From Euryarchaeota archaeon RBG_19FT_COMBO_69_17 (lineage in GTDB: Archaea; Thermoplasmatota; Thermoplasmata; RBG-16-68-12), in assembly GCA_001800825.1 (NCBI GenBank), contig MGWD01000027.1, positions 13,015 through 63,840 on the forward strand: a DNA stretch of 50,826 nucleotides. Reading direction: 5' to 3'. The position numbers and the translations under genes were made by a program. The notes under the pieces were generated by a model. It saw only the letters and a list, made by a program, of their open reading frames with translations, was not told the DNA's origin and did no database searches. This document shows positions 2 through 43,931 of the stretch, one piece after another. The stretch's first letter is position 1. Each line of letters opens with the position of its first letter.

Positions 2-1510
2 GACGCCCTCAAGGAGGACCAGCCCCGCGTCGCCGAGGTGCCGTTCGCCTCGGAGCGCAAGAAGATGTCGACCCTCCACGCGCGGGTGCCCGCGGGGGAC
101 CTCCCGGGGCTCCTCGCCCTTCCGGAAGACCGGCGGGCGAAGCGGCTCGCGGCGGCAGGGCCCAAGACCCTCTACGCGAAGGGGGCCCCCGAGCGGATCC
201 TCGCGGCGTGCACGAATCACGTCGTCGACGGGCAGGCGGTCCCCCTCACTGAGTACGACCGGAAGCAGTACGTCTTCCAGAACCAGGAGTTCGCGACGCG
301 GGCCCTGCGGGTCCTCGGGGTCGCGAAGCGCGAGTTCCCGGGTGAGCTGTCCGCCCTCACGGAGGAAGCCCTCGAGCGCGACCTGACGTTCCTCGGCCTC
401 GTCGGGATGATGGACGCCCCTCGGACGGACGCGGTCCGCGCGATCGAGGAGTGCGAGAAGGCGGGCATCCGGGTGGTCATGATCACGGGGGACCACAAGC
501 TCACCGCGATGGCCGTGGCGCGGGAGATGGGGATCCTCTCGGAGGGCGAGCGCGCCCTCACGGGGGAGGAGCTCGAGAAGATCCCCGATGAGGATCTCGT
601 CCGGGACGTCGAGCAGATTCGGGTGTACGCCCGCGTGGCCCCGGAGCACAAGGTGAGGATCGTCGCGGCCTGGAAGAAGCGGGGCCACGTCGTCGCGATG
701 ACCGGTGACGGGGTGAACGACGCGCCCGCCCTCAAGCGCTCGGATCTCGGGGTCGCGATGGGCATCACGGGGACCGACGTCGCGAAGGAGAGCGCGGACA
801 TGGTCCTCCTCGACGACAACTTCGCGTCGATCGTGAGCGCGGTCGAGGAGGGCCGCGGGATCTACGACAACATCCGGAAGTTCGTCCGGTACATGCTGAG
901 CACGAACTCGGGGGAGGTCCTCACGATCTTCATGGCGACCCTCCTCGCCCTCCCGCTCCCCCTCCTCCCCCTCCAGATCCTCTGGATTAACCTCATCACG
1001 GACGGCTTCCCGGCCCTCGCCCTTACCGTGGAGCCGAAGGAGAGCGGGATCATGGCCCGCCGGCCGCGGGACCCGAAGGCGGGAATCCTGAGCGGCGGGA
1101 TCGGCTTCCACATCGTCTGGGTCGGGGTCCTCATGACCGTCGGGGCCCTCGCGATGTTCGTGTGGGCCCTCTCGAACCGCCCGGACGCGGCGGAGCACAA
1201 CGAGGCCCGGACCCTCGTGTTCTACGTCCTCACGATGTTCCAGGTCTTCCACGTCCTCGCGATCCGCGTCGAACAGAAGTCCGTGTTCACGGAGGGCTTC
1301 TTCCGGAACCGCCATCTGATCGCGGCGGCCCTCGGGACGATCGGCCTCCAGCTCCTCGTGATCTACGCGGAGCCGTTCCAGTCCGCCTTCCGGACGTACG
1401 CGCTCCCGTGGGAAGAGATCCTCGTCGCGACCGTCGTCGCATCCTCCGTCTTCTTCGCGGTCGAACTGGAGAAGTGGATTCGGAGGCGCCGCGATCGTGC
1501 TCCTCGTTGA
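2..1510 (+). CDS. P-type (P2, SERCA-like) cation-transporting ATPase, C-terminal ~500 aa; the 5' end lies outside the window
   Basis: The frame is open from nt 2 (DALKEDQPRVAEVPFASERKKMS...), so the listed GTG at 38 is internal. P-type signatures are MITGDHKLTA (TGD) and VAMTGDGVNDAPALK (GDGxNDxP). These are followed by TM helices with the SERCA-like LQILWINLITDGFPALAL. Confidence 0.9.
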   Translation, partial: DALKEDQPRVAEVPFASERKKMSTLHARVPAGDLPGLLALPEDRRAKRLAAAGPKTLYAKGAPERILAACTNHVVDGQAVPLTEYDRKQYVFQNQEFATRALRVLGVAKREFPGELSALTEEALERDLTFLGLVGMMDAPRTDAVRAIEECEKAGIRVVMITGDHKLTAMAVAREMGILSEGERALTGEELEKIPDEDLVRDVEQIRVYARVAPEHKVRIVAAWKKRGHVVAMTGDGVNDAPALKRSDLGVAMGITGTDVAKESADMVLLDDNFASIVSAVEEGRGIYDNIRKFVRYMLSTNSGEVLTIFMATLLALPLPLLPLQILWINLITDGFPALALTVEPKESGIMARRPRDPKAGILSGGIGFHIVWVGVLMTVGALAMFVWALSNRPDAAEHNEARTLVFYVLTMFQVFHVLAIRVEQKSVFTEGFFRNRHLIAAALGTIGLQLLVIYAEPFQSAFRTYALPWEEILVATVVASSVFFAVELEKWIRRRRDRAPR

Positions 1511-2534
1511 CGGCTCGACGGGAGAGGGCGGCGGGCAGATCCTGCGGATGGCCGTGGCCTTGGCCGCGACGACCCTCACGGAGGTCCGGGTCGAGGGCAT
1601 CCGGGCGGGCCGGCCGTCCCCCGGCCTCGCGGCCCAGCACGTGACCGCGGTCAAAGCGGTCGCGGCCCTGTGCGCCGCGGAAGTCGAGGGCCTCGAGGTC
1701 GGGTCGAAGGCGATCACGTTCCGCCCCGGCCCGATCGAGGCCGGCCGGCACGCGTTCGACGTCGGCACGGCGGGCGCGGTGACCCTCGTCCTCCAGGCGT
1801 GCCTCCCCGTTGCCCTCGCGGCGCCGGGACCCGTCCGGATTCGTCTCGTCGGCGGAACGGACGTCCGCTGGTCTCCGCCCGTGGACTACGTGTCCCGGGT
1901 CCTCCTGCCCCTCCTACGGCGTCTCGGCGGGCCCGCCGACCTTCTCCTCCTGCGACGCGGGTACTACCCGCGAGGCGGGGGCGCGATCGAGCTCTCGACG
2001 CGTCCCGCGGACGGATGGGCCCCTCTCGCGGTCGACGCGCCGGGGGTCGTGCGCTCGGTCCGGGGGATCGCCCACGTCTCGAACCTCCCCGAGGACATCC
2101 CGAAGCGGGTCAAGCACGCTGCGATGCGACGGCTCCGATCCCTCGGGGACGTCCAGATCGAGGAGCGCGTGTACAAGGGGGACGAGGCCGTGGGCCAGGG
2201 CGGCGCCTTCGTCCTGTGGGCGGAGACGGAGGCCTCCGTCCTCGGATGCGCGTCCCTTGCGGAGCGCGGGAAGCCATCCGAGCGGGTGGGCCAGGAGGCG
2301 GCGGGGGCCCTCCTGTCGGAACTCGAGTCGGGCGCATCCCTCGATGTCCACGCGGCGGACCAGGTCCTCCCGTACCTCGCCCTGGCCCCGGGCCCCTCCT
2401 CGTTCACGGTCCGCGAGGCCACCGGGCACCTGAGGACGATGGCGTGGCTCGTCGAGAAGCTCCTCGGGCGCGAGGTGCGGATCGAGCCGCAGAACCGCCT
2501 GTGGCGGGTGGCCGTGCCGGGGCCGCGGTCCTAA
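1497..2534 (+). CDS. rtcA: RNA 3'-terminal phosphate cyclase
   Basis: 345-aa ORF with a GTG start that overlaps the ATPase stop by 14 nt. It has the N-terminal DGSTGEGGGQILR and C-terminal LDVHAADQVLPYLAL motifs characteristic of RtcA. Confidence 0.9.
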   Translation: MLLVDGSTGEGGGQILRMAVALAATTLTEVRVEGIRAGRPSPGLAAQHVTAVKAVAALCAAEVEGLEVGSKAITFRPGPIEAGRHAFDVGTAGAVTLVLQACLPVALAAPGPVRIRLVGGTDVRWSPPVDYVSRVLLPLLRRLGGPADLLLLRRGYYPRGGGAIELSTRPADGWAPLAVDAPGVVRSVRGIAHVSNLPEDIPKRVKHAAMRRLRSLGDVQIEERVYKGDEAVGQGGAFVLWAETEASVLGCASLAERGKPSERVGQEAAGALLSELESGASLDVHAADQVLPYLALAPGPSSFTVREATGHLRTMAWLVEKLLGREVRIEPQNRLWRVAVPGPRS

Positions 2535-4876: not shown

Positions 4877-5325
4877 AGCTCCTCTGCGACCACATGCTCG
4901 GGAGCCTCGCCCGCTGGCTCCGGTTCATGGGGTACGACACGGCCTATCCGGAGGCCGTCGGAGACCGGGAGCTCCTGATGATCGCCCGCGCGGAGGACCG
5001 CGTCCTCCTGACCCGGGACAAGGAGCTCGCCGCCCGCGCCCCGGGCGCGATCCGCATCCGAAGCGACGTGCTCGAGGAGCAGGTCCGCGAAGTCGCGGCG
5101 AGCCTGCCCCTCCGTCTCGTGGACCCCCTCTCCCGCTGCTCCCTGTGCAACACGCCGCTCGTCGCCGCCACCCCGGAGGAGGTCCAGGACCTCGTGCCCG
5201 AGGACGTGCGGGCGAAGCACGCGGAGTTCTGGCGGTGCCCCGGGTGCGGGAAGGCGTACTGGCGGGGCACCCACTGGGACAAGATGATCGAACGGCTGAA
5301 CCGGCTCGACCTCTCCAAGGCCTAG
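4873..5325 (+). CDS. Mut7-C RNase domain (DUF82) protein with C-terminal zinc ribbon
   Basis: The GTG at 4873 overlaps the arfC stop (GTGA). The N-terminus is VKLLCDHMLGSLARWLRFMGYD. CSLCN...CPGCG form a CxxC...CxxC ribbon. The upstream part of listed ORF 3871..5325 is junk. Confidence 0.8.
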   Translation: MKLLCDHMLGSLARWLRFMGYDTAYPEAVGDRELLMIARAEDRVLLTRDKELAARAPGAIRIRSDVLEEQVREVAASLPLRLVDPLSRCSLCNTPLVAATPEEVQDLVPEDVRAKHAEFWRCPGCGKAYWRGTHWDKMIERLNRLDLSKA

Positions 5326-5696
5326 TCGCGCGCGAGGAACCGGGCGAGCTCGGAGGTCCCCCCGCGGCCCAGCCACGCCGCGAGGACGGCCTCCTCGGCC
5401 TCCTCCCGGGAGTAGCAGGCCACTCCTGCGGCCTCGAGGGCCTCCGCCTCGTCCGGGGACGTCTCCTCGAGGAGCACGGCGGCCAGGGTCGCGCTCGATC
5501 CCTCCCGGGCCTCGAGGAACGCGGTCGCCTCCCCGCGACGCAGGAAGGCGAGGATGAGTTCCGCACCGTCCCTCGTGCCGAGGACGATGGCCCCCTCGGA
5601 CGTGACGGACCATCCCGACGCCGCGAGGATCCCCGCGACGGCCTGCTGGAGCACGCGCACCCCATCGCGGACCCGTGGAAAAGGCCGCCGACGCAA
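5322..5696 (-). CDS. hypothetical protein (start uncertain)
   Basis: 124-aa ORF with a TTG start and an alpha/beta-looking sequence (ILAASGWSVTSEGAIVLGTRDGAELILAFLRRGE...). I recognise no motif. Its start overlaps the carA promoter region. Confidence 0.35.
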   Translation of the reverse strand: MRRRPFPRVRDGVRVLQQAVAGILAASGWSVTSEGAIVLGTRDGAELILAFLRRGEATAFLEAREGSSATLAAVLLEETSPDEAEALEAAGVACYSREEAEEAVLAAWLGRGGTSELARFLARD

Positions 5697-5697
5697 A

Positions 5698-5707
5698 CCC
5701 TAATATG
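5698..5707 (+). promoter_or_regulatory. TATA-like box for carA
   Basis: CCCTAATATG, centred about 35 nt upstream of the carA ATG (5738). Confidence 0.35.
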
Positions 5708-5737
5708 CGGCCCGGAAATGGGGGCGGGGTCCATCGG

Positions 5738-6823
5738 ATGGAAGGCTCCCTCGTCCTGGAGGACGGCACGGTCGTGGGGGGCGCGTTTTTCGGGTCCCGG
5801 CGCCAGGCGGCCGGCGAGCTCGTGTTCAACACGAACATGACCGGGTACACGGAGGCCCTCACGGACCCCTCCTACCGTGGGCAGATCCTCCTCATGACCT
5901 ACCCGCTGATCGGCAACTACGGGGTCGACCCGCGGACGATGGAGTCCGACAGGATCCAGGTCACGGGTTTCGTCGTGAAGGAGGCCTGCGCCACCCCGAG
6001 CCATCCGAGGTCCGCGATGGCCCTCGCTGCCTTCCTCGAAGGCCACGACGTCCCCGGCCTCCAGGGCGCGGACACGCGCATGCTCACGACGCGGATTCGG
6101 AGCCGGGGGACGATGAAGGCCGCGATCGTGCCCGCCCACGCCGACGTCGACGCGGCCGTGCGGGAGGTCCGGCGGATGCCCCACCCGGACACGCGAAACC
6201 TCGTGGCCGAGGTCTCCTGCCGGGAGCCGGTCCGCTTCCCCGGCGCGGAGCGCCGCACGATCGTCGTCGTGGATTGCGGGGTCAAGCGGAACATCGTCCG
6301 GGAGGCCCAGCGGAGCGCGGACGTCGTGTGCGTGCCCTACGACACCCCGACGGACGAGGTCCTCGCCCTGCGCCCGGACGGCGTCATCCTATCGAACGGT
6401 CCCGGGGACCCGGCGCACCCTGCGATCCTCTCGACGACCGTGCGGACGGCGCGGGAGCTCGCGGACCGCCACCTCCCCCTGTTCGGGATCTGCCTCGGGC
6501 ACCAGATCCTCGCCCTCGCGTTCGGAGCGAGGACGTTCAAGCTGAAGTTCGGCCACCGCGGCGGGAACCAACCCGTGAAGGACGCCCGCACGGGCCGCGT
6601 GCGGATCACGTCCCAGAACCACGGGTTCGCCGTCGACGAGGCGTCTCTCAAGGGCTCCGAGTTCGACGTGTCCAGCGTGAACCTGAACGACGGGACCGTG
6701 GAGGGGCTCGTCCACCGGGACCTGCCCGTCTTCTCCGTGCAGTACCACCCGGAGGCCCGCCCCGGGCCCTGGGACAATGAGTACCTGTTCCGGGACTTCG
6801 TCGCGACCCTCGGGAGGTCCTGA
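5738..6823 (+). CDS. carA: carbamoyl-phosphate synthase small (glutaminase) subunit
   Basis: The start is placed at MEGSLVLEDGTVVGG. It has NTNMTGYTEALTDPSYRGQIL, the GATase triad context FGICLGHQ, and QYHPEA. Confidence 0.95.
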   Translation: MEGSLVLEDGTVVGGAFFGSRRQAAGELVFNTNMTGYTEALTDPSYRGQILLMTYPLIGNYGVDPRTMESDRIQVTGFVVKEACATPSHPRSAMALAAFLEGHDVPGLQGADTRMLTTRIRSRGTMKAAIVPAHADVDAAVREVRRMPHPDTRNLVAEVSCREPVRFPGAERRTIVVVDCGVKRNIVREAQRSADVVCVPYDTPTDEVLALRPDGVILSNGPGDPAHPAILSTTVRTARELADRHLPLFGICLGHQILALAFGARTFKLKFGHRGGNQPVKDARTGRVRITSQNHGFAVDEASLKGSEFDVSSVNLNDGTVEGLVHRDLPVFSVQYHPEARPGPWDNEYLFRDFVATLGRS

Positions 6824-6841: not shown

Positions 6842-6934
6842 GTGAGAAGGGTTCCCCGGCGGACGGACATCCGCAAGGCCATGGTCATCGGATCGGGCCC
6901 GATAGTCATCGGTCAGGCAGCCGAATTCGGGTGA
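6842..6934 (+). other. carB: carB 5' segment (codons 1-29) in frame 2, ending at a TGA two codons after the conserved ...GQAAEF
   Basis: A GGGAGG sequence lies 7 nt upstream of the GTG at 6842. The segment translates to [30 protein letters not shown]-stop, which is the canonical CarB N-terminus (E. coli [26 protein letters not shown]|DYSG). Confidence 0.7.
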
Positions 6935-9900
6935 GGCCTCCCCTCCCTCGACGGCAGTTCGACTACTCGGGCACCCAGGCCGTCCGCTCCCTCCAGGAGG
7001 AGGGGGTGCGGGTCGTCCTCGTGAACAGCAACCCCGCGACGATCCAGACGGACCTCGGGACCGCGGACGTCACGTACGTGGAGCCCCTCACGGTCGAGTT
7101 CCTCGAGCGGGTCCTCGCGAAGGAGAGGCCCCAGGGCATCCTGAGCGGGATGGGCGGGCAGACCGCCCTCAACCTGTGCAGCGAGCTCGCGGAGCGCGGG
7201 GTCCTCGCGACGTACGGCGTCGAGCTGCTCGGCACGAAGCTCGAGGCGATCGCCGCGAGCGAGGACCGGGAGAAGTTCGCCTCCCTCATGCGGTCCATCG
7301 GGGAGCCCGTCCCGCGAAGCATGGCCGTGTCCGACGTCCCCGCGGCCCAGGCCTTCGCGGAGAAGGTCGGCTTCCCCGTCATCGTGCGGGCTGCGTACAC
7401 CCTGGGCGGCAGCGGGAGCGGGGTCGCCCGCGGGCACGAGGACCTCGAGCGGATCGCGGGTCTCGGCCTCGCGTACTCCCGGATCCACCAGGTCCTCGTC
7501 GAGGAGAGCGTCCTGGGGTGGAAGGAGTTCGAGTACGAGGTCATGCGGGACGGCGCGGACAACTGCATCACGATCTGCAACATGGAGAACATCGACCCCA
7601 TGGGCCTGCACACGGGGGAGTCGATCGTCGTGGCCCCCGCCCAGACCTTGAGCGACGGGGACCATCAGACCCTCCGGTCCGCGTCCCTCCGGATCATCCG
7701 CGCGCTCAAGATCGAGGGGGGATGCAACATCCAGTTCGCGGTCCACCCGACGACGGGGGAGTACCGCGTGATCGAGGTGAACCCTCGCGTCTCGCGGTCC
7801 TCCGCCCTCGCCTCGAAGGCCACGGGCTACCCGATCGCCCGGATCGCAGCGAAGATCGCGATCGGCCTCACCCTGAACGAGATCCCGAACGCGGTCACGG
7901 GGAAGACGAAGGCGTCCTTCGAGCCCACCCTCGACTACGTCGTCACGAAGATCCCTCGCTGGCCCTTCGACAAGTTCCCGACCGTGGACCCGCACCTCAG
8001 CACCTCGATGAAGAGCACGGGGGAGGTCATGGCGATCGGCCGGACGATCGAGGAGTCCCTCCTCAAGGCGGTCCGGTCCCTCGAGATCGGGAAGCTCGGC
8101 CTCGAGCCGGAGCCCTGGACGGACGACGCCCTGCGTGAGGAGCTCGGAGTCCCGACGGACAAGCGCCTCTTCGCGGTCGCGGAGGCCTTCCGCCGCGGAT
8201 GGCCCGTCGGGAAGGTCGCGGAGCTCAGCGCCTGGGACCCCTTCTTCCTCGAGAAGGTCCGGGCCATCGTGGCCATGGAGGCGCGCCTCCATGGGCGACG
8301 GTCCTCGCCCGCCCTCCTCGCGGAGGCGAAGCGGATGGGGTTCTCCGACGCGCGGATCGCGGCCCTCTCTGGAGGGACGGAGGCCTCCGTCCGCCGTCGC
8401 CGGCCGAGGGTCACGTACAAGATGGTCGACACGTGCGGGGGCGAGTTCGAGGCCCGGACGCCGTACTTCTACTCGACGTACGAGTCCGCGGGCGAGACCT
8501 CCCGGCTCCGAGGGCGCAAGGTCCTCATCGTCGGGGGCGGGCCCATCCGGATCGGCCAGGGCGTGGAGTTCGACAACTGCTGCGTCCACGGGATCCAGGC
8601 CCTCCGGGAGGCTGGCGTCACGGCGATCATCGCGAACAACAACCCGGAGACCGTGTCCACGGACTTCGACGTCTCGGACCGGCTCTACTTCGAGCCCCTC
8701 CAGCTGGAGGACATCCTCAACATCGTCGAGGAGGAGTCCCCGGACGGGATCATCCTCCAGTTCGGCGGGCAGACGTCCGTGAACCTCGCGGTCCCCCTCG
8801 CGAAGGCCCTGGCCCGCATGCGGGCCAGGACCCGGATCCTCGGCACCCCCCCGGCGTCCATCGACCTCGCGGAGGACCGTCGAAAGTTCGCGGCCCTCAT
8901 GCGCCGCCTCGGGATCCCCCAGCCCCGGGCCGCGTCGGGCTACGGCTTCTCGGAGGTGCGGGCCCTCGCGGGCCGGATCGGATATCCGGTCCTCGTCCGC
9001 CCGTCCTACGTCCTCGGAGGCCGCGGGATGGAGATCGTCCACTCCGAGGAGGAGCTCGAGCCGTTCATGGAGTCCGCGACCCGCGTCTCGCGGGACCATC
9101 CCGTCCTCGTGGACAAGTACCTCGACCACGCGACAGAGGTCGACGTGGACGTCGTCGCGGACGGCCGGGACATCTTCATCGGGGGGATCCAGGAACACGT
9201 CGAGGAGGCGGGGATCCACTCGGGGGACGCGACCCTCGTGATGCCGCCCACGACCCTCGGTCCCGACGTCCTCGGTCAGATCCGGACGATCACGCGCCGA
9301 GTCTGCAAGGCCCTGGGGATCGTCGGCCTCATGAATCTCCAGCTCGCCGTGAAGGACGGGAAGGTGTACGTCCTCGAGGCGAACCCGCGTGCGAGCCGGA
9401 CGGTCCCCTACGTGTCGAAGGCGATCGGCGTGCCCCTCGCGAAGGTCGCGACCCAGGTCATGCTCGGGTCGAGCCTGAGGCGCCTCGGGCTCGTTCGGGA
9501 GCCGCGCATCGACCACGTCGCCGTGAAGGCGTCCGTGTTCCCCTTCCAACGCCTCCCGGGTGTCGACGCGATCCTCGGGCCCGAGATGAAGAGCACGGGG
9601 GAGGTCATGGGGATCGACGGGACCCTCGGCCGGGCGTTCTACAAGGCGATGGTCGCCGCCGGGAACCCACTCCCCGTCGAGGGGGCCGTGTACATGACGG
9701 TCCGGGACGAGGACAAGCCCGCGGCGGCCGAGGTCGCCCGGCGGTTCGCCTCCTGCGGCCTCCGGATCTACGCGACCCGGGGCACGGCCCAGATCCTCCG
9801 GGAGCAGGGGGTCGACGCGAAGACGGTCTACCGGATCAGCGAGAACCAGTCCCCCGACGCGCTCGGGCTCATGCGCCGGGGCGAGATCCGGCTCGTCGTG

Positions 9901-10107
9901 AACACTCCGACGAGCTCCTCGGGCGCCCGACGGGACGGGTACATGATGCGGCGCCTCGCCGTGGACCTCGGGATCCCCTTCATCACGACGATCCAGGCGG
10001 CCCGCGCCGCGAGCCTCGCGATCGAGGAGGTCCGCCGAGGGGACCTCGGGGTGCGCTCCCTCCAGTCGTACGCCCGTTCGGCCCGGCGGTCGTCCGCAAG
10101 GCTTTAG
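6931..10107 (+). CDS. carB: carbamoyl-phosphate synthase large subunit (frame 1; the conserved sequence resumes at DYSGTQA, nt 6961)
   Basis: 1058-aa ORF containing both ATP-grasp halves and the MGS-like tail. The listed first 10 aa ([10 protein letters not shown]) are encoded by the 32-nt insert. Homology to CarB begins at [31 protein letters not shown]. Confidence 0.95.
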
Positions 10108-26891: not shown

Positions 26892-26905
26892 AATAAGTTA
26901 AGATA
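26892..26905 (+). promoter_or_regulatory. TATA-like box for the AsnRS-like gene
   Basis: AATAAGTTAAGATA, centred about 31 nt upstream of the ATG at 26930. Confidence 0.4.
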
Positions 26906-26929
26906 CTCCCAGGCGAATGGGTTGGCCCC

Positions 26930-27922
26930 ATGGCCGGCCCGGTTCGTATCCCGCCCGCGGAGGCGCTCCAGCGCTCGTACCTCACGGTCCGGGACCCGCG
27001 GATGCAGCGCGTCCTGCGCGTTCAGGCGGCCCTCGGCATGACGATCCGGGAGTACCTGAACGGCCACGGATTCGTCGAGCTCCTGCCGCCGATCATCGGG
27101 CCCGTCGCGGACCCCGGGCTCCGCGGGGCGAAGCAGGCGACGATCAACTTCTACGGCCGCGAGTACAAGGTCATGTCGAGCGCGATCCTGTACAAGCAGA
27201 TGATGGCCGCCTCCCTCGGGAAGATCTACTTCTTCTCCCCGAACGTGCGACTGGAGCCCCTCGAGACCGCGACGACGGGGCGGCATCTCGCGGAGTTCGT
27301 CCAGGTCGACATCGAGGAGGCCGGGGCGACATACGAGGACGCGATGGCCCGCGCGGAGGACCTCGTGAGGACCGTGATCGCCCATGCGAGGGGGGCTCTC
27401 GGGGACGACCTCGTGGCGTTCGCCCGCCGCCTGAACGGCGGGTCCCGCCCCTTCCGTCGCCTCCTCTACTCGGAGGCCGTCGGCCTCCTGAAGGAGCACG
27501 GCCGCGAGGTCCCCTACGGGGTCGAGATCCCCTGGGAGCACGAGGAGTTCCTCTCGACCCTGTTCGAGGAGCCCTTCTTCATCCACGACTACCCGCGGGG
27601 CTCCCGCGGCTTCTACGACCGGGAGGACCCCGCGAAGCCGGGGATCCTGCGGGACTTCGACCTCCTCTATCCCGAAGGATACGGGGAGGCGATCAGCGGC
27701 GCGGAGCGGGAGCACGAGTACGCGAAGGTCATCGCCCGCCTCCGGGAGACGGGGGAGAACCCCTCGAAGTACGGCTGGTACATCGACATGCTCCGGGAGG
27801 GGATCCCGCCGTCCTCGGGCTTCGGGATCGGGATCGAGCGCCTCACGCGGTACGTGTGCGGCCTCCGGTCGATCTGGGAGGCCCGGCCGTACCCGAAGGT
27901 CCCGGGCGTCTTCAGCCCGTAG
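26930..27922 (+). CDS. class-II aaRS catalytic-core paralog without anticodon-binding domain (archaeal AsnRS-like asparagine synthetase A type)
   Basis: 330 aa. Class II motif 3 is GFGIGIERL, and there is an Asp/AsnRS-like core (FFSPNVRLE, HLAEFVQVDIE). There is no OB-fold N-domain. Confidence 0.8.
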   Translation: MAGPVRIPPAEALQRSYLTVRDPRMQRVLRVQAALGMTIREYLNGHGFVELLPPIIGPVADPGLRGAKQATINFYGREYKVMSSAILYKQMMAASLGKIYFFSPNVRLEPLETATTGRHLAEFVQVDIEEAGATYEDAMARAEDLVRTVIAHARGALGDDLVAFARRLNGGSRPFRRLLYSEAVGLLKEHGREVPYGVEIPWEHEEFLSTLFEEPFFIHDYPRGSRGFYDREDPAKPGILRDFDLLYPEGYGEAISGAEREHEYAKVIARLRETGENPSKYGWYIDMLREGIPPSSGFGIGIERLTRYVCGLRSIWEARPYPKVPGVFSP

Positions 27923-30782: not shown

Positions 30783-32348
30783 TCAGGACCGTAGGATCTC
30801 CCGGGCTGCATTGTAGCCCGGCGCGCCCGTGACCCCGCCGCCGGGGTGGGCCCCCGAGCCGCACAGCCAGAGGCCGTCGATCGGGGTCCTGTACCGCCCC
30901 CATCCCGGGACGGGGCGGAGGAGGAACTGCTGGTCGAGGCTCATCTCCCCATGGTACACGTGCCCGCCCGTGAGGCCGAAGCGGGCCTCGAGGTCCGGCG
31001 GCGTGAGGATCTCCCGCCCGACGATCGAAGGCCGCAGGCCGGGGAACGCCTCCTCGAGGCGGTCGAGGACCTTCTCCCCGAGCTTCTCCCGGGCCTTGTC
31101 CCAGTCCCCCCGCCGCAGGCCGTACGGCGTGTACTGGACGAGGACGCCCATCACGTGCTTCCCGGGCGGCGCGAGTCCCGAATCCTCGAGGGTCGGCAGG
31201 ATGACGTCGAGGACGGGCTCGTCGGACGCCCTGCCGTACTTCGCGTCGTCGTACGCCCGCTCGACGTAGTCGAGGGAGGGCGCGAGGCGCGTGTGGACGG
31301 GCGGCCGCCCGTCCGCCGCGGGCGCGAACCGAGGGAGGGCGTCGAGGGCGAGGTTCATCTTCGTGAGGACGCCCGTCGCGCGGTACGCGCGGATTGCGGA
31401 GACGAAGGAGGGCTCGAGCTCCGCGGGGTCCACGAGCCGGAGGAACGTCCGCTGGGGGTCCGCGTTGCTCGCGACGGCCCGTGCGGGGACCCGCTCCCCG
31501 GAGGCGAGCTCGACGCCCACGGCCCGCCCGTCCTCCACGAGGATCCGCCGGACCTCTGCGTCCGTCCGGATCGTCGCGCCGGAGGCCCGGGCCGCGTCCG
31601 CGAGGGCGGCCGCGAGCTGTCCCATCCCCCCGCGCACGAGGGCCCATGAGCCGCCGTTGACGTACGCGAGGGCGCCGTGGAGGAGCCCGAACGCGGTCCC
31701 CGGGGACCGCGGCCCGCGGAACGATCCCAGGAGGGCGCCGAACGCGAGGGTCGCCCGGAGGAGGTCCGTCTCGAACCACTCCCTCAGAAGCTGGTGCAGG
31801 CTCATGGGCGGGAGCCGGAGCGCCTGCCCCATCGCGTCCTTCCCGAGCTTCCGGAGGCGTAGGGCGCGCCGGAGGAAGAAGGCCTGCTCGCCGAGGCCCA
31901 CCCCCGAGAGATCCGGGGGCGTCCGCAGGAGGAGAGGGTCCATGACGGCCGCGAGCTGGACGAGCATCTTGAGGAAGCGCGGGTACGCGGCCGCGTCGGC
32001 CGCGGAATGGGTCCGGAGTCCCTCCGCGGTCCGGGGGAGGTCCCGGAAGAGCGTGAGGGTGTCCCCGTCGTCCCCGAGGGCCACGAGCTCCGGGTCCACG
32101 GGGATCAGCCCGAGGCCGCGGGCCGCGAGCCCGAGGTCCCGGACGATCTCGGGCCGCAGGAGGCCGCAGAAGTCGGCGGCCGTCGAGGCCCGGAAGCCCG
32201 GCGCGATCTCCTCCGTCGCGGCGGCCCCGCCGACCTGGGACCGGCGTTCGAGGACCACGACCCGGCGGCCCGCCCTCGCGAGGTACGCGGCGGCCACGAG
32301 GCCGTTGTGCCCGCCCCCGACGATGGCCACGTCCCAGGCGTCCGCCAT
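30783..32348 (-). CDS. phytoene-desaturase-related (COG1233, PYROXD2-like) FAD/NAD(P) oxidoreductase, paralog 1
   Basis: It has WDVAIVGGGHNGLVAAAYLARAG...LERR...GGAA.TEE..PGF and the C-terminal LRPVPGW..YRTPI.GLWLCGSGAHPGGGV. Confidence 0.85.
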   Translation of the reverse strand: MADAWDVAIVGGGHNGLVAAAYLARAGRRVVVLERRSQVGGAAATEEIAPGFRASTAADFCGLLRPEIVRDLGLAARGLGLIPVDPELVALGDDGDTLTLFRDLPRTAEGLRTHSAADAAAYPRFLKMLVQLAAVMDPLLLRTPPDLSGVGLGEQAFFLRRALRLRKLGKDAMGQALRLPPMSLHQLLREWFETDLLRATLAFGALLGSFRGPRSPGTAFGLLHGALAYVNGGSWALVRGGMGQLAAALADAARASGATIRTDAEVRRILVEDGRAVGVELASGERVPARAVASNADPQRTFLRLVDPAELEPSFVSAIRAYRATGVLTKMNLALDALPRFAPAADGRPPVHTRLAPSLDYVERAYDDAKYGRASDEPVLDVILPTLEDSGLAPPGKHVMGVLVQYTPYGLRRGDWDKAREKLGEKVLDRLEEAFPGLRPSIVGREILTPPDLEARFGLTGGHVYHGEMSLDQQFLLRPVPGWGRYRTPIDGLWLCGSGAHPGGGVTGAPGYNAAREILRS

Positions 32349-32351
32349 GGA

Positions 32352-33950
32352 TCACGGCCTCCCGAGGCCCCAGTCCCGCAGGATCTCCCGGGCCGCGTTG
32401 TACCCGGGCGCCCCCATGACCCCCCCGCCCGGATGGGCACCCGAGCCGCATAGGTACAGCCCCTTGACGGGCGTGCGGTACTGGGACCACCCGGGCACGG
32501 GCCGCAGGAAGAAGAGCTGGTTCGGCCACAGCTCCCCCTGGAAGATGTTGCCGCCCGTGAGGCCGAACTCCTGCTCGAGGTCCCAGGGGGTGAGGACCTG
32601 CCGGTGGAGGATCGCCTTGGGCAGGTTCGGGGCGTACTCCGCGAGGGTCTCGACGACCGCGTCGCCGAACTCCTCCCGCCGCTCCTCCCACGTCCCCTTC
32701 CTCAACGTGTACGGCGCGTATTGGACGAAGATCGACATGACGTGCTTCCCGGGCGGGGCCATCCCGGGGTCCAGGGTCGACGGGAGGAGGCAGTCGAGGT
32801 ACGGGCGCTTCGAGAAATCCCCGTACTTCGCGTCGTCGTACGCCTTCTCGATGTAGTCCACGCTCGGGCTGATCGAGAGGGAGCCGCGGAGGTGCTCCCC
32901 CCTCCCCGGGAGGGACGTGAACTCCGGGAGCTCCTTCAGGGCGAGGTTTACCTTCCCGGAGGAACCCTCCGTGACGTAGGCCTCGATTCCCCGCACGAAG
33001 TCCGCGGGCAGTTCGCTCCTGTCGAGGAACGCCAGGAAGGTCCGTTTGGGGTCCACGCTCGACGCGACGGCCCTCGCCTCGATCCGCGTGCCGTCCGCGA
33101 GTTCGACCCCGACGGCCCGCCCGTCCCGGGTGGCGATGCGCCGCACGTCGGCGTCCGTCCGGATGTCCACCCCATGGGCGCGGGCCGCGGACGCGATGGA
33201 CTCGCTCACCATCCCCATCCCGCCCTTCACGAACCCCCAGGCCCGGAACGCGCCGTCGACCTCGCCCATGTAGTGGTGGATCAGCACGTACGCGGTCCCC
33301 GGCGACCGCGGGCCGAGGAACGTCCCGATGATCCCGCTCGCGGACATCGTCCCTTTGAGGACGTCCGTCTCGAACCACTCGTCGAGGTAGTCTGCAGCGC
33401 TCATCGTCAGGAGGCGTGCGAAGGTCGTGAGGACCTCCTCGTCGGCCCCCTTGAAGTAGCCCAGGAGCTCGAGGAGCTTCGCGACGTTTCCCGGGCTCAG
33501 GGAGCCGATGTCCGGGGGCGTCATCCCGAGCTGGGGCTTCACGAGCCGCGCGATGCGGACCATGAGCTGGCCGAACTTCGGGTACGCCTCCGCGTCCCGC
33601 TTCGAGAACTTGGCGATCGCCCGGCGGTTCTCCTCGGAGTCCCCGCCCCGGTACAGGTACCGGCCGTCGGGCATGGGGGAGAACGTCGACTCCACGGGGA
33701 CGATCTGGTACCCGTGGACCGGGAGGTCGAGGTCCCGGATGATCTCGGGCCTCAGGAGGCTACAGACGTACGAGCACTCCGTGTACTTGAACCCGGGATA
33801 GATCTCTTCCGTGACCGCGGCGCCCCCGAGGACTTTCCGTCGCTCGAGGACGAGGACCTTCTTGCCCGCCCGGCCCAGGTACGCGGCCGTCACGAGGCCG
33901 TTGTGCCCGCCCCCGATGACGATGACGTCGTACCCGTTCCCCGGCCCCAT
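32352..33950 (-). CDS. PYROXD2-like FAD/NAD(P) oxidoreductase, paralog 2
   Basis: The start is placed at the ATG at 33950 (MGPGNGYDVIVIGGGHNGL). Its stop lies 3 nt before the paralog 1 start. It shares the same N- and C-terminal motifs. Confidence 0.85.
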   Translation of the reverse strand: MGPGNGYDVIVIGGGHNGLVTAAYLGRAGKKVLVLERRKVLGGAAVTEEIYPGFKYTECSYVCSLLRPEIIRDLDLPVHGYQIVPVESTFSPMPDGRYLYRGGDSEENRRAIAKFSKRDAEAYPKFGQLMVRIARLVKPQLGMTPPDIGSLSPGNVAKLLELLGYFKGADEEVLTTFARLLTMSAADYLDEWFETDVLKGTMSASGIIGTFLGPRSPGTAYVLIHHYMGEVDGAFRAWGFVKGGMGMVSESIASAARAHGVDIRTDADVRRIATRDGRAVGVELADGTRIEARAVASSVDPKRTFLAFLDRSELPADFVRGIEAYVTEGSSGKVNLALKELPEFTSLPGRGEHLRGSLSISPSVDYIEKAYDDAKYGDFSKRPYLDCLLPSTLDPGMAPPGKHVMSIFVQYAPYTLRKGTWEERREEFGDAVVETLAEYAPNLPKAILHRQVLTPWDLEQEFGLTGGNIFQGELWPNQLFFLRPVPGWSQYRTPVKGLYLCGSGAHPGGGVMGAPGYNAAREILRDWGLGRP

Positions 33951-34005
33951 GGACTCCTCCCCTCCTGGTCTCGCGTCTCCTCCGCCCCGCCCACCGCCAC
34001 GGAAT

Positions 34006-34022
34006 CGTTTCCGGGGGAAACG
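34006..34022. promoter_or_regulatory. palindrome CGTTTCC-GGG-GGAAACG in a divergent intergenic region
   Basis: 7-bp arms. A second palindrome, ACGCT-TT-AGCGT, lies at 34037-34048. Both fall between the divergently transcribed paralog-2 and GcvT-like genes. Confidence 0.3.
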
Positions 34023-34165
34023 AGCGGTCCCACTTAACGCTTTAGCGTCTGGGCCCCTGTACGGAGACGTCACAACGTCGAGCGCGCAAAGGTTTTATCG
34101 AACCCGCGGCATCCCGCCGCATTCGGCGCGCGCCGCGCGCCGGAGGGGAAGTCGGGAGCGAGACG

Positions 34166-35353
34166 ATGCCGCGGGGGACGCCCTTCCACTCGAGGACAGC
34201 CGCCCTGTGCGAGTCCCACGCCTGGAGGAACTGGTCCGGCTACCTCGCCGCGAGCTCCTACACCCTCGTCCCCGAGATGGAGTACCACGCAATCCGCATG
34301 GGCGCCGCCCTCATCGACGTCTCGCCCCTGTTCAAGTACCACGTCACGGGGAAGGACGCGACCCGGCTCGTGAACAAGGTCATCACCCGGGACGCGGCGT
34401 CGTGCAAGCCGAACCAGGTCCTCTACACCCCGTGGTGCGACGAGCGCGGGAAGACCGTGGACGACGGGACCGCGTGGAACCTCGGGGACGGCTCCTGGCG
34501 CATGACGTCGGCCGAGCCGAACTTCAAGTGGCTCCAGGACAGCGGGGTCGGGATGGACGCCGAGGTCGAGGACGTCTCCGAGGACATCGCGGCGGCGGCC
34601 CTCCAGGGGCCGACCTCGCGGGCGATCCTCCACGACCTCGTGGACGGGGCCGTCGACAAGCTCCGTTTCTACCGCTTCACCCGCGCGAAGCTCGACGGGA
34701 TCGACGCGACGATCTCCCGTACCGGGTACACGGGGGACCTCGGGTACGAGGTCTGGGTCCCGCGGGAGAAAGCGGAGCGCGCGTGGGACGCCCTCATGGA
34801 CGCGGGCCGGGGCCACGGGATCGAGGCTGCGGGGATGCTCGCGCTGGACATCGCCCGCATCGAGGCGGGCTTCATCCTCGCGGAGGTCGACTACATGCCC
34901 TCGCGGAAGGCCCTCATCGACGCCCAGCGCTACTCGCCGTTCGAGCTGAGCCTCGATTGGACCGTCGCCCTCGACAAGGGCGGTTTCGTCGGGCGGCGGG
35001 CCCTCCGGGAGGAAGCCCGTCGGGGTCCGCCCCGCCGGATCGTCGGGCTCGAGGTCGACTGGGCCCGGGCGGAGCGGTTCTTCCACGAGAAGGGCCTCCC
35101 CGCGGAGCCCCCTCGCCTCGCCTGGCGATCCAACGTCCCCGTGTACGCGGGGATGTGGCAGGTCGGGCGGGCGACGAGCGGCACGTGGTCTCCCCTCCTC
35201 AAGCGGTACCTCGTCCTCGCGACGGTCGACGCCGGGTACGCGGCGGAGGGCACGGAGCTCGAGATGGAGATCACGGTCGAGGGGGAACGGAAGCGCGCGC
35301 CGGCCCGCGTCGTGAAGCGGCCGTTCTTCGATCCCCCGCGGAAGAAGGCGTGA
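34166..35353 (+). CDS. GcvT-family aminomethyltransferase-like (folate-binding) protein
   Basis: 395 aa. It has ISRTGYTGDLGYEVW and an overall GcvT / sarcosine-oxidase-C-terminal pattern. Confidence 0.85.
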   Translation: MPRGTPFHSRTAALCESHAWRNWSGYLAASSYTLVPEMEYHAIRMGAALIDVSPLFKYHVTGKDATRLVNKVITRDAASCKPNQVLYTPWCDERGKTVDDGTAWNLGDGSWRMTSAEPNFKWLQDSGVGMDAEVEDVSEDIAAAALQGPTSRAILHDLVDGAVDKLRFYRFTRAKLDGIDATISRTGYTGDLGYEVWVPREKAERAWDALMDAGRGHGIEAAGMLALDIARIEAGFILAEVDYMPSRKALIDAQRYSPFELSLDWTVALDKGGFVGRRALREEARRGPPRRIVGLEVDWARAERFFHEKGLPAEPPRLAWRSNVPVYAGMWQVGRATSGTWSPLLKRYLVLATVDAGYAAEGTELEMEITVEGERKRAPARVVKRPFFDPPRKKA

Positions 35354-35408
35354 ACTCTCGGGTCCCCGGCAATCCATTTATCGGAGTTCCGGGTTGCGGC
35401 CCGTGGCG

Positions 35409-36971
35409 ATGCCGTCCTTCGACGCGATCATCATCGGCGGGGGCCACAACGGGCTCATCGCCGCCGCGTACCTCGCGAGGGCGGGCCTGAGGGCCCTCGT
35501 CCTCGAGCGCCGCCCGATCCTAGGGGGCGCGAGCATCACGGAGGAGATCCACCCCGGGTTCCGCGTGAGCACGCTCGCGTACGCATGCGGCCTCCTGCGG
35601 TCGGAGATCAAGGAGGAGCTCGAGCTCGAGCGATTCGGCCTCGACGAACGTCCGTACGACCCGTCCCAGTTTCTGCCGTTCCCCGACGGGAGGCACCTCC
35701 TGTTCCGTCACGACGCGGCGTGGAACGCGGAGCAGGTCGCGAAGTTCTCCAGGGCGGACGCGCAGGCCCTCCCCCGGTACGAACGGTTCTGGAGGGAGTT
35801 CGCGGAGCTCGTGGAGCCCACGCTCCTCGCCCCGCCCGTCTCCCTCGCGGACCTCGTGTCCCTCGTGCGGACCCCCGAGGCGGAGGACTTCCTCCGCCAG
35901 CTCATGCTCCGCTCCGTCGCGGACCTCCTCGACGACTTCTTCGAGTCCGACGAGGTCAAGGCGTCCTTCGCGACGAGCGCGGTCGCAGGCACCCTCGCAG
36001 GGCCCCGGACCCCCGGCACGGCGTTCGTCCTCGGCCACCACACCCTCGGGACGATCCGGGGCCAGAAGGGGGTGTGGGGCTGGGTACGGGGTGGGATGGG
36101 GGCGATCCCCGATGCGATCGCCCGGGCGGCCCGCGCACACGGGGCGGAGATCCGCACGTCCGCACCCGTCTCCCGGATCCTCGTGCGGGACGGCCGCGTC
36201 GCGGGCGTGGAGATTCTGGACGGGGCGCGGATCGAGTCCCGGGTCGTCGTGAGCGGCGTAGACCCCCGGCGCACGTTCCTTGGCCTCGTCGGCGCGGACC
36301 ACCTGCCCGAGGACTTCGTGCGGGCCGTCGCGCGGATCCGCATGGAGTCGTCCTCGTTCAAGTTGAACCTCGCCCTCCGGGAGCTGCCCGACATCACCGC
36401 GGTCCCCGGGACCCACCTCCAGGACCACCACCGGGCGATCCTCGACATCGCGCCGTCCATGGACTACCTCGAGAGGGCCTTCGACGACGCGAAGTACGGC
36501 CGGCCGTCCCGGGAGCCGTTCCTCGAGTTCGTGATCCAGAGCGCGAACGACCCGACCGTCGCGCCGCCGGGGATGCACACCCTCACCGTGTCCGCGAAGT
36601 TCGCCCCTTTCGATCTCGCGAAGGGCACCTGGGACGACGAGGGGGAGGCGTTCGCGGACCGCATCCTCGAGACCCTCGAGGCGTACGCCCCGAACCTCCG
36701 GCGGGCCGTCGTCGCGAAGCACATCTACACGCCGCTCGACATGGAACGGGAGCACGGGATGACCCGGGGGGACGTGTTCCACGGGGCGATCCTGCCGTAC
36801 CAGATGTTCTCGTTCCGCCCCGTCCCGGGCTGGTCCCAGTACCGGACCCCCGTCGAGGGGCTCTACCTGGGCGGGGCCGGCGCCCACCCGGGCGGCGGCG
36901 TCCTCGGCGCCCCGGGTCGGAACGCGGCCACGGCGGTCCTCGAGGACTGGCCCCGTCTCAAGGGCGCCTGA
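35409..36971 (+). CDS. PYROXD2-like FAD/NAD(P) oxidoreductase, paralog 3
   Basis: ATG at 35409 (MPSFDAIIIGGGHNGLIAAAYLARAG). The listed TTG at 35394 is possible. It ends with the same C-terminal motif, RPVPGWSQYRTPVEGLYLGGAGAHPGGGV. Confidence 0.85.
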   Translation: MPSFDAIIIGGGHNGLIAAAYLARAGLRALVLERRPILGGASITEEIHPGFRVSTLAYACGLLRSEIKEELELERFGLDERPYDPSQFLPFPDGRHLLFRHDAAWNAEQVAKFSRADAQALPRYERFWREFAELVEPTLLAPPVSLADLVSLVRTPEAEDFLRQLMLRSVADLLDDFFESDEVKASFATSAVAGTLAGPRTPGTAFVLGHHTLGTIRGQKGVWGWVRGGMGAIPDAIARAARAHGAEIRTSAPVSRILVRDGRVAGVEILDGARIESRVVVSGVDPRRTFLGLVGADHLPEDFVRAVARIRMESSSFKLNLALRELPDITAVPGTHLQDHHRAILDIAPSMDYLERAFDDAKYGRPSREPFLEFVIQSANDPTVAPPGMHTLTVSAKFAPFDLAKGTWDDEGEAFADRILETLEAYAPNLRRAVVAKHIYTPLDMEREHGMTRGDVFHGAILPYQMFSFRPVPGWSQYRTPVEGLYLGGAGAHPGGGVLGAPGRNAATAVLEDWPRLKGA

Positions 36972-43696: not shown

Positions 43697-43727
43697 GGAG
43701 CTCCCTAACGATCTCCCCCTGATGGGA

Positions 43728-43749
43728 GGGCGACACAGTCGGGTCGCCC
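43728..43749 (-). promoter_or_regulatory. 7-bp GC hairpin in the putative 5' leader of the giant gene
   Basis: GGGCGAC-N8-GTCGCCC lies between a TATA-like CATTTAGA (43756-43763) and the ATG at 43696. Confidence 0.3.
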
Positions 43750-43931
43750 TGGGGGTCTAAATGCCTTGGTAGCTCGTTATCGGCCCTGATACATCTGAAG
43801 TGCCGACGTATCGCTCGGCGTCGAGCCCGCCCGGGATGGGAATCCGGCCGCGTCCGTGATAATCACGCGTGTTAATGATAATCCCCGGCGACCCTTCATC
43901 TAGCTCGACCCCACATATCTCCCGTTTTGCC

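Follow-up and report, generated by a model that had tools for sequence, protein, structure and literature searches.

The introns of archaeal pre-tRNAs and pre-rRNA processing stems are reportedly set by the hBHBh' motif, a form of bulge-helix-bulge (BHB) described by Marck and Grosjean in 2003. The target of the splicing endonuclease is a helix of 4 base pairs (bp) found between two bulges of 3 nucleotides (nt) each (PMC7714728). Within the coding regions of Archaea, a BHB intron has since 2002 been reported for cbf5 of Crenarchaeota alone (PMC2738675, PMC7714728), where it is known from Aeropyrum and Sulfolobus (Watanabe et al. 2002; Yokobori et al. 2009, PMC2738675). A paper of 2020 names cbf5 as the only case, and work from 2025 cites cbf5 only (PMC7714728, PMC12397907). 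A single BHB intron in a 5' untranslated region has also been reported, that of HVO_1309 in Haloferax volcanii (PMC7714728). In this paper, we deal with a 32-nt interruption of carB, which encodes the large subunit of carbamoyl-phosphate synthetase (CPSase), in a stretch of 50,826 nt from Euryarchaeota archaeon RBG_19FT_COMBO_69_17 (contig MGWD01000027.1, positions 13,015 to 63,840 of the forward strand), referred to below as the window. Positions 6926-6957 of the window very probably represent a 32-nt archaeal endonuclease-type (BHB) intron within the carB coding region. Our literature search returned no paper that links carbamoyl-phosphate synthetase with a BHB motif. The mechanism itself is already known, and what is new is the host gene, the lineages and the distribution at the same site across phyla.

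The interrupted carB gene

The window has a base composition of 70% G+C. The small subunit gene, carA (5675-6823, + strand), is an intact open reading frame (ORF) with the Pfam domains CPSase_sm_chain and GATase, and its end is separated by 18 nt from the GTG at 6842 that starts carB, the context being that of a carA-carB operon. The frame opened by this GTG encodes 30 amino acids (aa) and ends at a TGA, 6932-6934, and the sequence ...FDYSGTQA... is found in a long ORF of 1058 codons (6931-10107) whose frame differs. Deletion of 32 nt in silico regains the motif GQAAEFDYSG, which agrees with an earlier note, made on this DNA from the letters alone, that described an interruption of this length inside the motif. 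The predicted spliced CarB contains 1077 aa and aligns over its full length with the CarB of intact relatives at 78-80% identity. Exon 1 (6842-6925, + strand) consists of 28 codons, the last of which is Glu GAA. Exon 2 (6958-10107, + strand) starts with FDYSGTQA and runs for 1049 codons plus a stop, with no internal stop and a third-position G+C fraction (GC3) of 0.94. That carA and the remaining 1049 codons of carB are intact, as the note had also stated, is thus borne out by the ORFs.

The exact position of the insert is set by its relatives. A TTCG direct repeat, correctly seen before, lies at 6926-6929 and 6958-6961, and the window alone therefore places the 32 nt only to within 5 positions. 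Of 22 distinct sequences, 20 have ATC, ATT, ATG or TCC rather than TTC as the upstream codon; the DNA of three relatives (L001-L003), for instance, has a 32-nt insert at the same place with ATC as the upstream codon. The only boundaries that are valid throughout are consequently those after Glu GAR and before Phe TTY, which give an intron of 32 nt at 6926-6957 (+ strand), UUCGGGUGAGGCCUCCCCUCCCUCGACGGCAG. The length first proposed for the insert was therefore right, and its placement at 6929-6960 has to be moved 3 nt upstream. Excision at the level of DNA by way of the TTCG repeat was considered and rejected, as the repeat is not conserved.

Both exons are under purifying selection. Over the final 15 codons of exon 1 in 23 sequences, the variable sites at codon positions 1/2/3 number 5/1/13, a distribution which shows that exon 1 is translated and constrained in its own frame; the corresponding values for exon 2 are 6/4/14. 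The order OsmC, RibD_C, Mut7-C, carA, carB, DUF131 and 2-hydroxyacid dehydrogenase is common to intron-bearing and intron-less relatives; the carB genes compared here, with and without the intron, are single orthologous genes.

Structure of the RNA around the insert

The pairing described here had as its only anchors the splice sites required by the protein motif, and it was followed through the 22 distinct sequences. At its center is a 4-bp helix, H, whose 5' strand, GCCG (6920-6923, + strand), lies in exon 1 (positions -6 to -3) and pairs with a 3' strand, CGGC (6952-6955, + strand), at positions -6 to -3 of the intron, where either CGGC or CGGU is found across sequences. Helix H is present in all 22, with one G.A (L095). 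Paired cells in H amount to 98.9%, there being three changes from G-C to G-U or G.A, all at one end, and in the window sequence the pair probability is 0.99-1.0. The exon strand GCCG is kept in every intron-bearing gene, and two intron-less relatives have GCGG. Next to H is the 5' bulge, AA/U (6924-6926, + strand; predicted cut 6925/6926), which both the fold of the single sequence and the RNAalifold consensus leave unpaired; across the set it reads AAU, AGA or AAA and is unpaired in all sequences.

The intron itself forms a hairpin, h' (6927-6951, + strand), with arms at 6927-6936 and 6942-6951 and a loop at 6937-6941, giving in the window 10 pairs with one U.C mismatch at 6932/6946. A hairpin had been drawn earlier at 6929-6948; it exists, but only as the inner part of this longer one. 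Across the 22 sequences, h' contains 9-15 bp and begins at intron nucleotide 2. Its stem is built from at least five unrelated sequences (UCGGGUGAGG, UCGCGUGAGG, UGGGGUAAGG, UCCUCUCAG, CCAGGCAAAAC, UCGAG...), with 93.6% of cells paired, and the loop varies freely in sequence and length. In the MAFFT alignment, every gap falls in the hairpin loop.

Overall, 95.1% of cells are paired, compared with 39.7-53.9% when the partners are slid by 1-3 columns and 78.4% when they are shuffled; none of 500 shuffles reached the observed pairing. Compensatory changes on both sides are found at nine of the ten hairpin pairs, in 49 cells of the 22 sequences. When given longer flanks, RNAalifold independently returns H, the 3-nt 5' bulge and the hairpin and, on the 3' side, a run of precisely three nucleotides left unpaired beyond H. 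These form the 3' splice-site trinucleotide AG/U (6956-6958, + strand; predicted cut 6957/6958), which is unpaired in the consensus. Pair probabilities in the window sequence lie at 0.74-1.0 for H and the hairpin. The earlier note could draw no convincing bulge-helix-bulge, but one exists once the boundary is shifted by 3 nt, with GCCG/CGGC as H and with bulges AA/U and AG/U.

A covariance model, R1, was built from H, the bulge and the hairpin, and the window was run with filters off. R1 scores 53.6 bits at 6920-6958, the window sequence being among the training sequences, and at most 11.8 bits elsewhere in the 50-kb window. Over 300 kb of related loci, the model finds one site per intron-bearing locus and no site in the intron-less loci included. 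A permissive window scan for a BHB combined with ORF fusion was discarded, having given around 100 chance hits and missed the true site, where the short exon 1 failed the GC3 filter.

In a co-crystal, the first bulged nucleotide of the endonuclease target is A13, U14 supplies the attacking 2'-OH and A15 the scissile phosphate, so that the cut falls between bulge nucleotides 2 and 3 (PMC12397907). Applied to carB, this rule gives A6924 A6925/U6926 and A6956 G6957/U6958, and hence the join GCC GAA/UUC GAC. The predicted join restores GQAAEFDYSG in frame in 22 of 22 sequences, at every intron length. As the cleavage rule was not used in drawing the structure, this agreement constitutes a genuine test of it.

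In the proposed pathway, the exon GCCG (6920-6923) of the carAB transcript would pair with the intron CGGC (6952-6955) to form the 4-bp central helix, and the intron's own 10-bp hairpin would stack upon it, leaving AA/U bulged at the 5' junction and AG/U exposed at the 3' junction. The tRNA-splicing endonuclease EndA would then cut between the second and third nucleotide at both sites. An RtcB-type ligase would join GCC GAA to UUC GAC, giving GQAAEFDYSG and the 1077-aa CarB, and the excised intron would be released, probably as a circle. The predicted spliced exon junction (6925/6958, + strand) is ...GCAGCCGAA/TTCGACTACTC..., also written ATCGGTCAGGCAGCCGAA/TTCGACTACTCGGGCACC, and the predicted junction of the circular intron (6926-6957, + strand) is ...GACGGCAG/TTCGGGTGAGG..., also written ...CCCTCGACGGCAG/TTCGGGTGAGGCC....

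The TGA at 6932-6934 (+ strand) lies inside the intron in the frame of exon 1, and mRNA that stayed unspliced would yield the 30-aa peptide only. A stop in this frame is found within all 22 distinct introns, those of 33 and 39 nt included. Which arm of the hairpin holds the stop differs among the length classes, and UGAGG is a recurrent sequence, found on the 5' side of the stem in introns of 31/32 nt and on the 3' side in those of 29 nt. It may be that these recurring stops reflect selection for quick termination on unspliced mRNA.

Distribution among relatives

A comparison with carB of close relatives, which the earlier note had called for, finds the insert there at the same codon junction. 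When the restored 1077-aa CarB was searched against a protein collection, every hit of 81-99% identity lacked part of the N-terminus (1011-1059 aa), and those at 78-80% identity, from metagenome-assembled genomes (MAGs) labeled 'Thermoplasmata archaeon', were full length. Three of the short proteins begin with residues translated from the homologous insert. In the 90%-identity cluster, 22 of 23 members are called from the same internal start, and they come from ENA as well as JGI assemblies. An independent ENA assembly (L110), at 99% amino-acid identity, has an identical 32-nt insert.

Metagenome contigs were scanned with a pattern drawn solely from exon codons, ATCGGNCARGCNGCNGAR and then TTYGAYTAYTCNGG separated by 20-50 nt, which gave 26 loci. 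Inserts of 29, 31, 32, 33 or 39 nt are found at the exact junction in 24 of these, and 4 further contigs beyond the scan loci also carry an insert at the identical codon junction. One 29-nt case, L087, includes an NN scaffold join at which the 3' end of the intron is duplicated. The 46-nt 'insert' of L101 was rejected as an intron and is instead a partial tandem duplication of coding sequence. At 5008-5085 of that locus (OLPE01001343.1), the stretch GSGPIIIGQA.EFDY is duplicated, with ...GQAAEFDYW followed by FRPDHYRSGVREFDYSG in the other frame; the duplication may be an assembly chimera or may be real.

The insert spans CarB lineages that are 46-99% identical to the window. Spliced CarB of the 31/32-nt class is 79-99% identical to that of the window, and the values are 67-72% for the 29-nt class, 63% for the 39-nt case (L099) and 47-51% for the 33-nt cases (L095, L097). 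CarB of L099 is 80% identical to that of Candidatus Pyrohabitans jungbluthii (phylum Hydrothermarchaeota), a genome without the insert. The nearest named relatives of L097, at 55-66%, are Candidatus Micrarchaeota, the source of the epsilon2 endonuclease, and one 88% relative is intact. The insert thus appears to be patchy across three phylum-level groups, Thermoplasmata-like, Hydrothermarchaeota-like and Micrarchaeota-like, as assigned by CarB similarity alone. A genome-contig search with the restored CarB gave, among the matches listed, only sequences of at most 65% identity and none with the intron; its named loci were reused as taxonomic yardsticks. On one contig of the 29-nt class (L092, 1235-1319), ARAGORN calls an 85-nt tRNA-Trp, which is above standard length and may hold a short intron.

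The predicted 3' splice site and the points against an intron

The exon side of the 3' splice site is the weak point of the structure. A possible exon-side helix would involve a stretch of exon 1 (6909-6919, + strand) and, as its partner, 6957-6964, for which there are two competing registers. In the RNAalifold register, the invariant UCGG at 6909-6912 pairs with UCGA at 6959-6962 and 7 nt opposite are unpaired. In the minimum free energy (MFE) register of the window, 6911-6914 pairs with 6961-6964 and 6916-6918 with 6957-6959 (p = 0.90-1.0). The exon side of the 31/32-nt class takes the form of 7 x 3 or 3 x 3 internal loops, and that of the 29- and 33-nt classes (exon GCG GCC) of a 4-nt bulge closed by 2 bp. 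No strict form of helix h was found when one was looked for at this site; the coding role of the exon fixes the sequence here and leaves no room for covariation, and helix h is not established. Since the exon-side helix is poor, the modeled motif is graded as probably a relaxed, HBh' or bulge-helix-loop-like form and not the strict hBHBh'.

Several MFE folds also contain a long-range exon-exon helix of GCCCGAUAGUC with GACUACUCGGGC (6897-6907 with 6961-6972). This helix is not claimed, as intron-less genes show similar complementarity, the codons for GSGP and YSG being partly self-complementary. A rare Ile codon, ATA, at 6902-6904 of the window (CCG ATA GTC) is kept in 14 of 23 intron-bearing sequences, and two intron-less relatives have ATC where the intron-bearing genes keep ATA. 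The ATA codon could pair with the UA of the exon-2 Tyr codon in the possible long-range helix.

A number of observations weigh against the interpretation of the insert as a BHB intron. The MFE fold of the window weakly pairs the 3' site (6957-6959 with 6916-6918), helix h in its strict register amounts in the 31/32-nt class to 1 bp (A-U), and the window sequence, folded by itself, has a z-score of only -1.83; the structural evidence is comparative and not thermodynamic. A search for junction-spanning or intron-less alleles with the N-terminal 149 aa, in a collection of 5.8 billion sequences, found no junction-crossing protein with at least 90% identity to an intron-bearing lineage. The closest fragments that do cross the junction share 82-85% identity and fall among intron-less lineages. 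Neither endA nor rtcB was found when 40 ORFs, all within the 50-kb window, were scanned with Pfam. Finally, according to published work, it is the (alpha-beta)2 and epsilon2 enzymes that cleave relaxed motifs, and the alpha'2 endonucleases of Thermoplasmatales and Archaeoglobus are reported to cut strict motifs only (PMC3488258, PMC5829648). One protein from the window's 90% cluster, P0367 (1064 aa), was examined as a spliced or intron-less allele and rejected as the product of a chimeric contig, its first ~380 aa coming from an intron-less lineage and the rest being identical to the window species.

Alternative explanations

Four explanations had been listed in the earlier note, namely an artefact, a recent inactivating insertion, ribosomal hopping and a small RNA-level intron, and it is the last of these that the structure and covariation evidence supports best. 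Hopping, as in the translational bypass of phage T4 gene 60, would involve take-off from a TTC codon, a slide over the hairpin and landing on a second TTC. The window by itself invites this account, with TTC at 6926-6928 and 6958-6960, a stop one codon after the first and a hairpin between them, but an upstream TTC is found in only 2 of the 22 distinct sequences (the window and L103). The last codon of exon 1, GAR, is never matched by a landing codon, the three bases before the landing Phe being CAG, CCA, CAC, CAA, AAA, TAA or CAT, and a hop from ATC would produce ...AAEI-DYSG, with loss of a Phe that is found at that position in every CarB examined. Hopping also leaves the covarying exon-insert helix H unexplained, and we regard it as exceedingly improbable. 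An extremely small chance attaches likewise to a programmed frameshift or stop read-through, by which the insert would be translated as a loop of 10-13 residues. The exon-2 frame of the 32-nt class is indeed open through the insert (10 residues), and the insert peptide looks semi-conserved in P0002, P0003 and P0015; however, the lengths of 29, 31, 32, 33 and 39 nt correspond to offsets of 2, 1, 2, 0 and 0, which no single shift fits, the in-frame inserts of 33 and 39 nt carry TAG, TGA or TAA, and in L097 and L099 the Phe codon is immediately preceded, in the frame of exon 2, by TAA. Moreover, variation in the insert tracks base-pairing and not codon position, and translation would split a motif, GQAAEFDYSG, that is unbroken in every intact CarB examined. 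The same two TAA codons, immediately before Phe, speak against a split gene, in which a 30-aa peptide and a 1058-aa CarB would be produced through coupled reinitiation at an overlapping G-GTG-A and would associate non-covalently. GTG 6931 of the window does overlap TGA 6932-6934, and gene callers have started some relatives' ORFs at the GTG overlap, yet when the exon-2 frame is read from the stop that precedes FDYSG up to that motif, an ATG, GTG or TTG is encountered in only 6 of 22 sequences and is lacking in the other 16. With the covarying RNA structure and the exact register of bulge and codon junction left unexplained as well, a split gene is highly improbable.

The remaining alternatives treat the insert as damage or as error. 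If carB in this clade were a pseudogene or encoded an enzyme truncated at its N-terminus, the insert would be a tolerated lesion, and annotation pipelines do begin the protein at an internal Met or Val and so make it shorter, NCBI MGQ0798346.1 with 1033 aa being one example. Exon 1 would then be non-coding, yet it has 13 variable third positions against 1 second position; exon 2, with its GC3 of 0.94, is intact over 1049 codons, and the insert persists, with compensatory changes, down to 46% CarB identity. A downstream start would also remove the glycine-rich N-terminal stretch of the first ATP-grasp half, which is needed for CPSase activity. We therefore take loss or truncation of the gene to be very unlikely, and the presence of the insert across lineages of 46-99% CarB identity, together with purifying selection on exon 1, tells equally against a recent inactivating insertion. 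As for an assembly or sequencing artefact, assemblers do stumble at this site, as is evident from the NN join with its duplicated intron end (L087) and from the chimeric contig of P0367. The identical 32 nt in the independent ENA assembly, the internal start shared by 22 cluster members from ENA and JGI, and the diverged homologous inserts conserved in dozens of contigs from many samples nevertheless make an artefact a virtually negligible possibility.

Genomic neighborhood

Elsewhere in the window no other split genes were seen, an Rfam search of it at gathering thresholds matched no family, and a tRNA scan of it gave no tRNA genes. The gene for RtcA, the RNA 3'-terminal phosphate cyclase (Pfam RTC, RTC_insert), occupies 1362-2534 (+ strand) and precedes carAB by 4 kb; RtcA processes RNA ends and is often discussed alongside the RtcB ligase. 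An ORF of ~340 aa at 26897-27922 (+ strand) contains a tRNA-synt_2 class-II aminoacyl-tRNA synthetase catalytic domain but no anticodon-binding domain. The ORF is similar to the AsnRS-like asparagine synthetase paralogues of archaea, and no upstream exon was seen to be missing. In the regions 30783-36971 and 39149-43756, three paralogous genes resembling FAD amine oxidases flank a gene resembling the glycine-cleavage T-protein, and the minus strand there encodes a 1535-aa FG-GAP/beta-propeller/Big_9 protein, which is probably a surface protein.

Implications

A second coding-region case would show that endonuclease-type splicing of pre-mRNA is no crenarchaeal curiosity. The carB example concerns a core metabolic gene outside the TACK group, in three phyla as judged by CarB similarity. 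A tentative and rather doubtful extension is that the carB intron is either mobile or a very ancient BHB mini-intron, sitting at a single codon junction across three archaeal phyla. An endonuclease class regarded as accepting strict motifs only may, in the Thermoplasmata-like hosts, process a relaxed one. Removal of the intron may also be a regulated step that gates the production of carbamoyl-phosphate synthetase, given that translation of unspliced mRNA would end after 30 aa, at a conserved stop within the intron. If either proposal is true, endonuclease-type mRNA splicing is more widespread, and is put to use in archaeal gene expression to a greater extent, than the single case of cbf5 had suggested. 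The questions raised are which type of endonuclease cuts the relaxed motif in the relatives of Thermoplasmata, how splicing competes with coupled translation only 28 codons into the ORF, and whether the same-site distribution arose from an ancient origin followed by losses or from transfer of the intron.

There is also a consequence for annotation, as the intron makes pipelines call an essential carB gene truncated, from an internal start, or as fragments. NCBI MGQ0798346.1 (P0381) and the P0001 cluster are called from an internal Met or Val at 1011-1034 aa, with the N-terminal region silently missing, and are named as an ordinary carbamoyl-phosphate synthase large subunit. Miscalled carB genes could distort the inference of arginine and pyrimidine biosynthesis in these MAGs.

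Comparison with known systems

The pre-tRNA and pre-rRNA BHB introns share with carB the 4-bp central helix, the 3-nt 5' bulge and the intron-side h', and in both a cut after bulge nucleotide 2 fits the junction needed at the two sites. In carB, however, the substrate is the ORF of an mRNA, and the exon-side h is weak or interrupted, so that the motif is not strict. HVO_1309 resembles carB as an mRNA substrate of the splicing endonuclease, predicted to be such in the case of carB, in a lineage of euryarchaeon grade. Its intron lies in an untranslated leader and leaves the reading frame uninterrupted, whereas removal of the carB intron would be needed for the protein to be made. T4 gene 60 and the yeast-mitochondrial byp elements are similar to carB in the window sequence only, through a repeated codon, a nearby stop and a hairpin. 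They differ from it in that 20 of 22 carB homologues lack matched take-off and landing codons, the inserts vary from 29 to 39 nt, and pairing between exon and insert covaries.

The closest parallel is the intron of cbf5. The host genes differ, carB encoding a central metabolic enzyme and cbf5 an RNA-modification enzyme, as do the lineages, which are Thermoplasmata-, Hydrothermarchaeota- and Micrarchaeota-like for carB and crenarchaeal for cbf5. Splicing of cbf5 has been shown experimentally and tied to a heterotetrameric endonuclease, whereas that of carB is predicted from sequence. In both genes, short introns in an archaeal coding region are set by a BHB-like RNA structure and not by sequence, and in both the introns are patchy among relatives, implying gain or loss. 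The modeled carB motif is probably also relaxed at the 3' exon junction, as is that of cbf5, which has been described as a bulge-helix-loop (PMC3241643).

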